A DNA stretch of 40,238 nucleotides from Candidatus Omnitrophota bacterium (GTDB lineage: Bacteria > Omnitrophota > Gorgyraeia > JAGLLT01). Shown piece by piece: positions 26,901-29,900 of this stretch. The position numbers were made by a program. The number at the start of each line of letters is the position of its first letter. Position 1 is the stretch's first letter. Location of the stretch: NCBI GenBank assembly GCA_023140385.1, contig JAGLLT010000044.1, positions 1-40,238 of the forward strand, written 5' to 3'.

Positions 26901-29900
26901 TTAATATTCTCGTCACATCTACATATCTTAGATTTGTTTTGCGAGCTTAGCTTAAATCTTCCTTTATTTTTAAAATCTTAGCTTTTAAATCAACCATATC
27001 TTCTTTGACAACTTTCAGGGTTCGTTTTAGATTTACTCCAAAGTATTCATGGATAAGGATGTCCCGCATACCCGCAATTTGCTTCCATGGTACCCCTGGA
27101 TATTGATCTCGGAACTCATGGGGAATGTTTTTGACAGCCTCGCCAATAATTTCTAAGCGTCTTAAAATAGCATCCTGAATTAGAGTATTGTTATAAAAAT
27201 CGTCCTCGTTATTAAATCCCTTCATATACTCTTCTATCTTTACAATGGCCTCTAATATATCTTCAATATACACTCGTACATCTCTTTTCATAAAAGCACC
27301 ACCTGTTCTTTGAGAATCCTTTCCTTAAGAAGGGGTTTGAGGGTGTCGTATTCTACTAAATCTACTTTCCGTCCCAGGGCCTCTTCGATTTTTTGTTTAA
27401 GCCCTACAAAACCAAGCAGGCTGATATCTGCCCTGATATCTATTAAGATATCAACATCACTCTCCTCTTTCATCTCACCCCGAACACAAGAGCCAAAAAG
27501 GGCTACTTTTTTAACTTCATAATCTTGCAGAATAGGAAGAATCTTTTGTTTTATTCCTTCAATATTTTCCGTCATAGCTTTTTTCCGTCCTTCAACAATT
27601 TATATTCAATACTATCAACCAGAGCTTGCCAGCTGGCTTCGATTATATTTCCTGAAACGCCTACTGTTGACCAGAGCTCCTCTTCGTCCTGCGATTGGAT
27701 AAGAACTCTTACTTTGGCGGCTGTGCCTGCTTTTTGATCGAGTACCCTTACCTTGAAATCTGCCAGGTGCATCTTCTTCAGGCTTGGATAAAAATCCTCT
27801 AGAGCTTTTCTTAAAGCGTTATCCAGGGCATTAATCGGGCCGTCGCCTTCGGCAGCCGTGTGCTCCATAATGCCGTTTACCTTAAGCTTAATAGTCGCCT
27901 CAGAGTAGAGTTGGGGCATCTTTGTTTTAGGGTCAATCCTTTTTTCATTGATAACCCGAAAGCCCTCTAATTCAAAAAACTTCTTGGACTTTTTCATCAT
28001 CCGCTTCATCAACAGTTCAAAAGAGGCTTCGCCGGCTTCAAAATGATAGCCTTCATTCTCCATATCCTGAAGCTGTTCTAATATCTTTTTTGTCTGGGGA
28101 GTATCTTTATCTAAATCAATATTAAGCTCCTTAGCCTTCATCAGAATACTACTCCTGCCGGCCCACTCAGAAATTAAAAATCTTCTTTTATTGCCCACCT
28201 CTTCAGGCTTTATGTGTTCGTAGGATGTCGGGTTTTTCATAACGGCATTAACATGCACACCTCCCTTATGGGCAAAGGCGCTCAAGCCGACGTAGGGTTG
28301 ATTGCCGCTCTGCTTCATATTACTTACTTCGCTTACGTAATGAGAAACCTCGGTTAACTCCTTTAATTTTTTGGGCGATAGGCAGTTAAGGCCTAACTTC
28401 AACTGCAATGTCGGAATAATCACACACAGATCGGCATTACCACATCGCTCCCCGCAGCCGTTAATCGTCCCCTGAACCTGAGTACAGCCGGCCTCAACAG
28501 CCGCGACAGAATTAGCCGCCGCCATTCCGATATCATTGTGTGTATGAATGCCTAAATTTATTTTTATCTCTTTTTTTACGGCTTTGACAATAGCAGAAAT
28601 TTCAGAGGTCAAACTCCCGCCGTTAGTATCACATAAAATAATCCCCTCTGCTCCGGCATCCTGAGCGGCCGTGAGAACCTTAAGCGCGTAGCCCGCGTTG
28701 TCCTTGTAACCATCAAAAAAGTGTTCCGCGTCAAAAAATACCTTCCGGCCCTTTTTCCTAAGATACCTGATACTTTCATCAACCATCTTCAGGTTCTCTT
28801 CCAGCGAAACTTTAAGAATGTCTTTCACCTGCAGAACCCAACTTTTTCCGAAAACGGTAATGTACTCCGTACCCGCTTTCAATAAAGCCTGGAGATTTTT
28901 ATCCTTATGGGCCTTGATATGACGGCGTCTGGTCGAGCCAAAAGCTACCAGCTTCGTCTTACCTAATTTTAAAGCCCCCGCTGTTTTAAAAAAAGTTAAG
29001 TCTTTCGGATTTGAGCCCGGCCACCCGCCTTCAACAAAGTGCACCCCTAACTCAGCCAGCTTTTTAACAATCTGCACCTTATCCCCGACAGAATAACTAA
29101 CCCCTTCCGCCTGAGCGCCGTCTCTTAAAGTCGTATCATATACTTTAATATGGGTCATAATCACTCCCCCTATTCGTATTGTCAAAAGTATTTACCCTTT
29201 ATACGTTTAAAAAACTCTAAACAAACTCTAAATCCTAATATCTAAATCCTAAATAATTTCAAAATTCTAATGTTCAAATGTTATAAACCTTAAGTGTCTT
29301 TGTTTTGGTCATTTGTATTTTGGACATTTGGATTTGTTTAGTATTTAGTGCTTAGTATTTAGGATTTCCCTCCCCGTCTTTATGTCTTTTTTAACTTTGA
29401 CGCCTTTTTACTTTTTTGCCGAGGTCAAACTCTTTGTGGAGAATTTTAACGGCCATCTCCGCCTTATCTTTCTTTATCAGGCAGGATATTTTTATTTCAG
29501 AGGTAGATATGGTCTCAATATTAATACCCGCCTCACCCAAACTGCCAAACATTCTGGCGGCTACACCAGCGTGGCTTCGCATACCTACACCGACGACTGA
29601 AATCTTGGCTATATCATTATCCTGAATTACGCCCCCGGCTCCGACTATTGAAACAACCTTCTTGATAACTTTTGTGGCCCTGCTCAGTTCCGTCTTTTCA
29701 ACTGTAAATGATATATCGGTACTCCCTGTCCGAGAAGTATTCTGGACTATCATATCAATATTAACATTGCCGCTGGCAATCTCTTTAAATATCCTGGCGG
29801 CCACACCCGGCTTGTCAGGAACATCGCAAATAGTAATCTTGGCCTCATTTTTGTTTAAGGCAATACCGCTAACCAGAACACCCTCCATCATTTTAACCTC

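Follow-up and report, generated by a model that had tools for sequence, protein, structure and literature searches.

A palindromic repeat at operon junctions of an Omnitrophota genome as a probable MITE of an IS6-like element, with a proposed oriented insertion before ribosome-binding sites

The window, the whole stretch of 40,238 nucleotides that was analysed, carries at 29176-29366 on the minus strand a repeat that points the same way as the genes on both of its sides, as do its other long copies in this Candidatus Omnitrophota genome. The question raised by this locus is whether such a polarity reflects a role in the operon mRNA, as an earlier note had proposed, or the way in which the repeat is inserted. 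We favour, with a probability of roughly 0.6, a reading in which the repeat is a miniature inverted-repeat element (MITE) of an insertion sequence (IS) of about 1.8 kb distantly akin to IS6, and in which the family inserts one way round, at a fixed spot before the ribosome-binding site (RBS). From the sequence comparisons, polarity is most likely the outcome of oriented insertion beside the RBS and not proof of an RNA function.

Copies and internal organization of the repeat

The copy at 29176-29366 is an AT-rich imperfect palindrome, whose minus-strand reading begins with AAATCCTAAATACTAA and finishes with GTATAAAGGGTAAATA. It lies between an upstream aspartate kinase ORF (29391..30629, minus strand; NF005155, 602 bits for a cut-off of 346) and a downstream citramalate synthase ORF (27572..29158, minus strand; TIGR00977, 770 bits for a cut-off of 450), both co-oriented with the repeat. 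When this copy was compared by blastn with the 57-contig genome, we obtained 25 matches on 13 contigs (69-100% identity, E<=1e-3), and copies 94-97% identical exist. A strand-specific nhmmer profile gave 41 hits, which resolve into 19 long loci, two fragments (C18 2085 and C25 17593) and one weak hit, in agreement with the previous estimate of about 20 imperfect-palindrome copies. The two fragments formerly described as reversed arise where palindrome arms match on the second strand, the same loci having forward matches as well (C18 2085-2152/2148-2082 and C7 52206-52331/52326-52266 by blastn). The length of 190 bp given before is too short as well: the 19 long copies measure 190-320 bp, and the copy in the window reaches 29175 at its right end and about 29404 at its left. 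No conserved ORF or transposase gene was found inside the 19 long copies.

Four parts can be distinguished in the copy of the window, all read on the minus strand. The right terminal inverted repeat (29175..29189) reads ...ACTTTTGACAATACG and matches the transposase-proximal end of the parent IS described below; a 13-mer of the right end matches at 29175-29187, and this end is common to 14 copies in the genome, to metagenome elements and to the ends of the 1.8-kb IS copies. Between it and the hairpin, the alignment of the 19 copies delimits a non-palindromic right module (29190..29230), which contains a U6/T6 run and the stretch GTATAAAGGGTAAATA and which is unpaired, or paired locally only, in the computed fold. 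Alignment and folds define the fold-back core, an imperfect palindrome (29231..29367) with arms built of repeats of roughly 7 nt, resembling CTAAATA on the left and TTTAGGA on the right; it is to this core that the matches in relatives correspond (query positions 34-189). Finally, 29368..29404 seems, on comparison with the left modules of other copies and with empty sites, to hold a left-module tail rich in purines and, putatively, a degenerate left end, GGCGTCAAAGTT. This part reaches over the stop codon (29391-29393) and the final codons of the aspartate kinase gene, and the boundary of this copy on the left, compared with the empty sites of three sister-genus genomes, is uncertain. Small conserved ORFs considered in the left module were rejected, as frames and lengths vary among copies.

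Matches to the repeat were present in 13 of 31 genomes, including all seven others of the order and 5 of the 23 from other families of the class. The earlier statement that related copies run through the order is confirmed. Across the class and in the metagenomes (there among the matches listed), conservation is far stronger in the ends than in the cores.

Ends, target duplications and a transposase-bearing parent

Terminal inverted repeats of 11-13 bp with G-rich tips bound the element, TGTCAAAAGTT... being its left end and ...AACTTTTGACAATAC its right one; TGTCAAAAGTT on the left is complementary over 11 nt to AACTTTTGACA on the right. The ends read G(G/A)TA-N-TGTCAAAAGTT. The left end is degenerate or absent in some copies, among them the one in the window. 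The element is flanked by a target duplication of 8-9 bp. In nine copies of this genome the mean flank similarity is 6.1 of 9, as compared with 4.5 in mismatched pairs, the observed mean being reached in 0 of 5000 permutations, and the copy on contig C16 displays a perfect AGAAAATA on both sides. An exact 21-mer from the left end served to retrieve the metagenome sample, whose counts hold among the matches listed. With this scope, at least 7 of 8 flank bases are identical in 16 of 35 elements in the best register, and mean identity is 4.94 against 2.36 in mismatched pairs; the best register of the duplication in these 35 is 8 nt, 9 nt being possible and the end bases ambiguous. Matching duplications are weak or absent at four full-length IS copies from the metagenomes (among the matches listed), and comparison of the copy at 29176-29366 with the empty sites of the sister genus yielded no clean target duplication.

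Empty sites were observed in close relatives. A same-genus genome has 10 bp where this genome has a 267-bp copy, and at three junctions (aspartate kinase|citramalate synthase, hisD|hisB and gcvT|gcvH) the genomes of the sister genus show 13-50 bp. The gcvT|gcvH junction is a hot spot, since three genomes carry three different cores there with the same right junction. In four DNA runs, no read or contig joined across the empty site; the assembled contigs break off inside the element, where summed depth reaches 30-130x that of the flanks.

Both ends of the repeat are shared by elements of 1.79-1.86 kb on metagenome contigs (n=4, among the matches listed). All four of these carry an ORF of 397-487 aa on the strand opposite to the host genes (again among the matches listed). 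The Pfam model DDE_Tnp_IS240 (PF13610) is above its cut-off in 4/4 of the transposases, with 30.8-43.6 bits for a threshold of 27, and the N-terminal part is a zinc ribbon. The best NCBIfam model is transpos_IS6 in 4/4, yet with 64-86 bits it stays below the cut-off of 125. Some elements also carry small nuclease-like genes of the PD-(D/E)XK type as cargo. Of 121 genomes from the class, 3 have homologues, and full-length copies of the element are present in two genomes of the class; by tblastn, neither transposase nor cargo genes had a match in the genome studied here. The idea that the repeat is MITE-like is thus borne out by its inverted ends, the target duplication, the empty sites and a transposase-bearing parent with the same ends. 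According to the available passages of a review (PMC7986276), members of the IS6 family have repeats of 8 bp and GG tips with TGT and caaa motifs; the long ones measure 1710-1760 bp and encode a zinc-finger transposase of 450 aa, and two MITEs are on record. By eye, and against the wording of those passages, the ends of the element agree with the inverted ends given for IS6 (15-20 bp, GG tips, TGT/caaa; PMC7986276). On these sequence comparisons, the repeat is probably a MITE of an IS6-like element, the parent being at best a distant branch of IS6.

Polarity, distance to the ribosome-binding site and competing explanations

Using ORFs called crudely, without a gene finder, we placed 18 of the 19 long copies on the strand of the neighbouring ORFs. 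At the 19th (C14 57959) there is an 83-codon ORF on the strand of the element, with an RBS at the usual distance before its start. The co-orientation with genes reported previously was hence confirmed for 19/19 long copies, with a probability of about 4e-6 under random orientation. The polarity is also kept in eight related genomes: at 40 loci with a clear strand call, both neighbours are co-oriented in 31, the only callable neighbour in 6, and the upstream gene with the downstream one opposite in 3, while an opposite upstream gene was seen in 0. Placement within operons, singled out by the earlier note, is at chance level, given that 873 of 977 neighbouring ORF pairs are co-directional; nor does the repeat fill most of the odd gaps, a copy being present in 7 of 35 co-directional gaps of 250-320 bp on the crude ORF map.

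The position of the right end is sharply defined. It lies about 12 nt before AAGGAGG, and the start codon of the next gene follows at +24 to +28 nt in 37 of 44 cases. Among the matches listed, 36 right flanks have A at +14 in 88%, G at +15 in 86% and G at +16 in 97%, and the first RBS-like 4-mer begins at +12 to +14 in 27 of them. The left flank is without signal, with the upstream stop codon -25 to 720 nt away, and the RBS spacing is kept even where 40-700 nt of non-coding DNA lie upstream. A same-genus comparison indicated that insertion into the end of the upstream ORF is tolerated. The same orientation and RBS distance are found in the full-length IS copies L199, L216, L229 and L244 (among the matches listed) and G052, and for this reason polarity looks like a property of insertion. 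The copy in the window breaks the spacing rule: the RBS and start codon of citramalate synthase occupy 29156..29170 on the minus strand (GGGGGAG 29164-29170; start 29156-29158), which puts the start codon at +18 and not at +24 to +28. As a counterpoint on spacing in general, many junctions leave 10-20 nt between stop codon and RBS, and selection could also shape the distance.

The RBS is presumed to be the landmark of insertion. The repeat has kept both ends of the IS and lost the transposase gene, a fold-back palindrome of short repeats standing between the ends, and its movement would depend in trans on the DDE transposase that the full-length element encodes. IS and MITEs alike would insert in one orientation, with the duplicated target ending 2-4 bp upstream of the RBS, which would place AAGGAGG about 12 nt, and the start codon 24-28 nt, downstream of the right end. 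The transposase gene, lost in the MITEs, would point against the host gene, and it may be the N-terminal zinc ribbon of the transposase that selects the target in this oriented way. The copies would be co-transcribed passively as spacers of 200-300 nt. Such an oriented target choice would account for the strict polarity, for the position at operon junctions and for the repeated hits on one junction across genomes.

Selection after insertion could produce a similar picture, although we regard it as unlikely: place and orientation would be random, only harmless copies that spare the RBS and the upstream gene would survive, and reversed copies would be lost, either as polar in the mRNA or as a source of inverted chromosome segments, through inverted repeats and intramolecular transposition of the IS6 type, in a genome with nearly all of its genes on one strand. 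This would agree with the short stop-codon-to-RBS gaps at empty sites (13-50 bp), with an extreme strand bias (the 873 of 977 co-directional ORF pairs) that makes inversions costly, and with the intramolecular replicative transposition of IS6, which leads to deletions or to inversions with the new copy inverted (available passages of PMC7986276). The spacing is however too sharp for a filter alone, with the RBS-like 4-mer at +12 to +14 in 27/36 flanks (among the matches listed), and it holds with 40-700 nt of non-coding DNA upstream; besides, tolerated insertions into the end of the upstream ORF imply that sites further upstream are permitted. Nothing that we found would put a reversed copy at a disadvantage. 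Whichever way round it is read, the element has stop codons in all frames, its hairpin is followed by a short T/U run, and a TTGACA faces outward at either end. A different source of bias would be single-stranded DNA movement by one of the Y1 (IS200/RAYT-like) transposases, with polarity following the replication fork, to which we give very little credence. The genome does have seven Y1_Tnp matches, and gene direction and presumed replication direction coincide almost everywhere, so that the bias would look alike; with genes on one strand in almost every contig, the gene and replication orientations of the copies are inseparable. Among 401 genomes of the phylum, none was found that combines long contigs with many copies and would allow replication directions to be compared; nine of them, all from the same class, contain the exact left-end 21-mer, mostly on short contigs. 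Yet the Y1 genes are single and mutually unlike, and none of the seven loci is flanked by the ends or the core of the element, the one on contig C26 having its own, different GC-rich hairpins; on the same grounds, we dropped REP/REPIN sequences mobilised by a RAYT (Y1) as a candidate. Elements moved by Y1 enzymes (IS200/IS605) are not known to have terminal inverted repeats or target duplications, and the presence of both speaks against a palindromic element derived from IS200/IS605. Against movement by Y1 there is also the DDE parent, whose ends the repeat shares.

A role in the operon mRNA, where the copies would be retained as processing or stability sites (e.g. for RNase III) that uncouple cistrons or as a 5' end before the RBS, appears doubtful from sequence. 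The paired ends or the long hairpin would form such a site, and function would then underlie polarity and spacing. Nine sequencing runs are listed as containing the stretch, none of them from RNA. It would fit with two ends complementary over 11 nt that could close the whole insert into one stem, with ends far better conserved than cores, with the fixed distance to the RBS and with junctions occupied in several genomes. The fold of -33.5 kcal/mol with a weak z reported earlier was reproduced; the sense z of -1.82 in the copy at 29176-29366 is no better than chance expectation, as compared with -4.22 for the antisense strand. Again, the gene-sense strand folds less well than the antisense strand in 15 of the 19 copies of this genome, while in 43 copies from relatives it is weaker in 19 and stronger in 24, the strands being without consistent difference. 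The same 19 versus 24 led us to drop a wobble-pair asymmetry, taken as a mark of an RNA hairpin, as a lineage effect. Also against a role in mRNA, no Rfam family matches, as noted before (0 matches at E<=1 in 29050-29500 on both strands, Rfam 15); orthologous operon junctions in sister genomes exist without the insert; copies 94-97% identical point to recent spread and not to old conserved sites; and the full-length IS, with its antisense transposase gene, sits likewise. The stronger claim that polarity means a function only within mRNA is unsupported, given the IS copies with the same orientation and RBS distance. The proposal of an internal-promoter module fared no better, since no consensus promoter for the downstream gene recurs among the copies. 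At 28900-29700 the sole consensus match combines the right-end TTGACA with a hexamer overlapping the start codon, and was rejected; in other copies the RBS occupies the place of this hexamer. Promoters of the type TTGACA-17-TATAAT are used elsewhere in the genome, and the terminator scan run with the promoter scan of 28900-29700 found none. Improbable, finally, is a composite history, in which a DDE lineage would read the RBS as an oriented landmark and its mobile, self-pairing inserts at junctions across the class would by now serve as mRNA processing or insulating modules, some of them with PD-(D/E)XK cargo.

Meaning and relation to known systems

If oriented insertion before the RBS is correct, a transposase homes to a landmark that stands before almost every gene without killing the gene; we found no description in the literature of RBS-homing for IS6-like or other insertion sequences. 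Oriented insertion would explain the odd gaps of 200-300 bp within operons of these small genomes, and the copies explain assembly breaks at such gaps, with contigs ending in the element. The family would also provide, as a natural series, operons whose cistrons are separated by a long structured spacer and operons that lack it, and it is a warning that strict strand polarity of a repeat is no proof of RNA function.

Small palindromic MITE-like intergenic repeats are known as Correia/NEMIS in Neisseria and ERIC in enterobacteria, where they are often co-transcribed and can form RNA hairpins; they occur in both orientations and are not known to keep a fixed distance from the start codon, and their RNA effects were shown by experiment. 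The present repeat resembles them in its palindromic, MITE-like and intergenic character, while it differs by its single orientation and fixed RBS distance. Mycobacterial MIRU, in contrast, lie between operon genes and point with transcription, as the repeat does, but they are tandem units of 40-100 bp that are not known to have inverted ends, a target duplication or a transposase, and their polarity goes with overlapping reading frames of small size; the repeat has inverted ends, a target duplication and a transposase-bearing parent. Tn7 at attTn7 and IS1397/ISKpn1 at REP loops are DDE elements that pick a defined landmark in one orientation, a single locus or repeat, whereas the landmark here would be the generic RBS before nearly every gene.

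Comparison with insertion sequences points in two directions. A survey of IS elements found an excess of them between convergent genes and a deficit upstream of genes (Plague 2010, PMC2942039, in the passages available); survival mainly outside genes is common to both, unlike the location of our family directly upstream of start codons. With the IS6 family (IS26, IS257, IS240 and the long 'clade i' members) the element shares a DDE domain of the IS240 type by Pfam and short, G-tipped inverted ends and, going by the available passages of the IS6 review (PMC7986276), the TGT motif and A-run in the ends, a target duplication of 8 bp, long members (~1.7-1.8 kb) extended at the N-terminus by a zinc ribbon, and MITEs, of which two are recorded there. 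It departs from IS6 in its strict target and orientation, a preference absent from those passages (PMC7986276), in transposases that score below the NCBI IS6 cut-off, and in cores that are long fold-back palindromes of short repeats, with nuclease-like cargo in some elements.

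Copies of the repeat and their orientation

The AT-rich imperfect palindrome at 29176–29366 shares the minus strand with the surrounding genes, aspartate kinase upstream and citramalate synthase downstream (both with NCBIfam scores above the cut-off). The assembly comprises 1.495 Mb in 57 contigs with 41% G+C, and the window is the entire contig C39; among named records, the citramalate synthase finds its best relatives, at 65–66% identity, in Candidatus Omnitrophota genomes, and DNA of the stretch was found in cold-seep metagenome runs. The repeat family itself is real, with 25 blastn matches at E ≤ 1e-3 in this genome (69–100% identical), and a profile built from the long matches gave 41 strand-specific hits that resolve into 19 long loci, two fragments and one weak hit. 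The reported co-orientation of the long copies with their neighbours held for 18 of the 19 by our ORF caller, a crude one that takes the longest ORFs greedily without a gene finder, while the 19th precedes an 83-codon ORF on the element's strand with a ribosome-binding site before it at the usual distance. Strand calls for palindromic cores depend on profile score margins; the short reverse matches, described earlier as reversed fragments, sit at loci that also match forwards and thus reflect the palindrome, not reversed copies.

The earlier note placed the element inside operons; co-directional surroundings are what chance gives, since 873 of 977 neighbouring ORF pairs are co-directional, and such pairs flank 82% of intergenic bases. 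Nor does the element fill most of the odd gaps, as had been proposed, a copy being present in 7 of the 35 co-directional gaps of 250–320 bp. The gene-strand bias is extreme: on nearly every contig the ORFs lie on one strand, which the G-C skew (about ±0.15 to 0.2) tracks, so that whatever is biased towards gene direction is equally biased towards anything else that follows that strand, replication for example; among 121 class and 401 phylum genomes we found none with long contigs and many copies that would separate replication from gene direction.

The core matched in 13 of the 31 genomes searched, among them every one of the order's 7 other members and representatives of 5 of the class's 23 other families, all genomes compared being metagenome bins. 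Forty regions from eight of these genomes yielded 55 loci by profile, and 40 of these had a clear strand call (score of at least 55 bits and margin over the other strand of at least 15 bits). Both neighbours were co-oriented with the element in 31 of the clear loci, the sole callable neighbour in 6, and the upstream neighbour with an opposite downstream ORF in 3; an opposite upstream neighbour was seen in none of the 40. In one of the 15 weak calls, where the strand margin is 8 bits, the upstream ORF is opposite.

Transposon ends, alternative cores and a full-length parent

The element is longer than the 190 bp first given, with transposon ends outside the core. A left module starting TGTCAAAAGTT is common to the upstream flanks of 10 of the 19 copies, and all well-kept copies terminate on the right in TTTTGACAATAC(G), the two ends being inverted repeats of each other. 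The left-end 21-mer occurs with up to one mismatch in 6 of 121 class genomes and exactly in 9 of 401 phylum genomes, all in one class. Across the flanks of nine copies the best 9-nt match averages 6.1 versus 4.5 for mismatched pairs, a value reached in 0 of 5000 permutations, and at the gcvT|gcvH copy (gene names as in the earlier note) AGAAAATA stands on either side. Where our genome carries a 267-bp copy, a genome of the same genus has an empty site of 10 bp (flanks 93–95% identical); in the empty genome the upstream ORF overlaps the next start codon, and in the occupied one it is a few codons shorter, with its stop within the element's first bases. Empty sites of 13–50 bp were found in sister-genus genomes at three other junctions, the window's included. 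The window copy departs from the pattern: the left end is degenerate or lost, the left boundary falls uncertainly between 29367 and 29404, the start codon is at +18, and a clean target duplication was looked for there and not seen. Where our genome has the copy at C33 72073, the same-genus genome (G001, C7 about 8117–8295; locus L097) holds an insert of another kind, about 150 bp long, which has a separate hairpin and a GATTACA-like repeat palindrome but lacks the canonical right end.

The same ends enclose other cores. A second MITE family (C10 23551–23871, with right ends at C33 38538, C21 34313 and C14 39496) combines both ends with a core of short CAAGATA/ACCAAAT-like repeats and has the orientation and start-codon spacing of the reported element. 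At the gcvT|gcvH junction three genomes carry three different cores with the same right flank, and a fourth is empty. The exact left-end 21-mer also seeded a metagenome sample of at least 120 contigs, from which 80 loci were fetched; in these 80 the sequence after the left end varies, with different short-repeat palindromes and GC-rich hairpins, and the right end (at most two mismatches in 13) was found in 38, mostly within 95–550 bp, one of them (L233) probably false. Some other elements hold small sense-oriented genes, PDDEXK_3/GxxExxY in two loci (L231, L260) and DUF559 in at least two (L190, L194, L230 and L232 being named); these elements, bounded by the same pair of ends, have the small PD-(D/E)XK-type genes between their palindrome arms and are cassette-like relatives of the MITE.

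Four of the 80 fetched loci, from at least 120 listed, are elements 1.79–1.86 kb long that carry both ends and an ORF of 397–487 aa, which in all four runs against the left-to-right direction. Pfam DDE_Tnp_IS240 scores above cut-off in all four, and the best NCBIfam model is the IS6 transposase, matched over nearly its whole length at a score below cut-off. Full-length copies judged by eye are placed like the MITEs, with the transposase gene against the host gene (L199, L216, L229 and L244, and in the related genome G052). Transposase homologues occur in 3 of 121 class genomes, and one of them, from a genome in which the core repeat is present as well, carries both ends. We found none in the genome under study; multi-copy elements are often lost from metagenome-type assemblies, so this does not prove absence. 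The short copies would have been mobilised in trans by such a parent. In another related genome (G028 C38; locus L305) a full-length IS has a transposase match with four in-frame TAA codons; its right end is at locus position 3076, and the left end of another family element begins 9 nt further on, reminiscent of insertion beside an existing end.

Other intergenic repeats and the Y1 genes

A different abundant repeat system occupies 15232–15544 of the window (minus strand) and about 16 other intergenic regions of the genome. GC-rich hairpin modules are strung together there with ATTAATTC-like linkers, all on the gene strand, and the last module closes with CTCATTAAGGAGG directly ahead of the start codon; it therefore seems to supply or contain the ribosome-binding site. 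The region 34225–34368 belongs to another cluster of 10 similar intergenic regions, and C25 holds long intergenic tandem GAGCTAT/GAGCCAT-like repeats (12918–14176 and 17314–17725), one of these stretches having half an arm of the reported element at its end. Several element copies (C14 14765–14988, C16 17437–17674, C7 52166–52376, C14 47199–47453) have small GC-rich hairpins inserted at differing places, 20–22 nt long and in one case 40 nt, and the 40-nt insert is also present, at window position 29322, in contigs from all four DNA runs compared; these inserts look like a second, REP-like mobile layer. As for the seven Y1 transposase genes, whose link to the element had been left aside, they are unrelated single genes without the element's ends. 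One of them, a 221-aa IS200-like gene at C26 15972–16637, has the same GC-rich hairpin on both sides, as a RAYT with its REPs would; the six others differ from it and from one another, three being about 315–327 aa.

Spacing to the ribosome-binding site and the reading of polarity

In the 36 metagenome elements with sufficient right flank among the matches listed, a sample picked by the exact left-end word, about 11 variable nucleotides follow the right end and a purine block then stands at a fixed place (A in 88% at +14, G in 86% at +15, 97% at +16 and 86% at +18). The start codon falls at +24 to +28 in 37 of 44 cases, counting the listed metagenome elements and 14 copies of our genome. In the same listed elements, the left flank carries no signal except a terminal G, and the upstream stop codon lies anywhere from -25 to 720 nt away. 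Their duplicated target is best fitted by a register of 8 nt, with at least 7 of 8 positions identical in 16 of 35, while 12 of 35 pass in the neighbouring register and the two sets may overlap. This duplication separates the right end from the purine block. The block, the ribosome-binding site, is thus not part of the element, and empty sites have it too. Divergent ORFs flank 7 of the 45 loci with callable neighbours among the matches listed, and there, too, the element has the direction of the gene it stands in front of.

These data are consistent with a family that would insert with a single orientation and a constant spacing ahead of the ribosome-binding site, possibly because the transposase recognises that site. 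This would explain the polarity and position of the copies and why a given junction is used repeatedly, and the copies would be passively co-transcribed. Random insertion followed by selection can narrow the positions where gaps are short, but it does not explain why the peak stays one to three bases wide even where the upstream side leaves room, and we found no feature that makes the reverse orientation worse. The earlier note had concluded from the strict polarity that the element works, or is tolerated, only as part of the mRNA. The two ends would indeed pair in a transcript, and an RNA function may exist; the polarity, however, is explicable without one, the window copy folds with z -1.82 in sense versus -4.22 in antisense, the difference between strands takes no consistent direction in relatives, and neither an Rfam match nor a recurrent promoter was found.

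In the parts of the literature consulted, we found no insertion sequence or MITE that targets ribosome-binding sites, nor such repeats in Omnitrophota. Among the closest known systems is the IS6 family, for which a review gives 8-bp repeats and GG tips with TGT and caaa motifs as marks, along with two recorded MITEs and long members whose zinc-finger transposase has 450 aa (PMC7986276).
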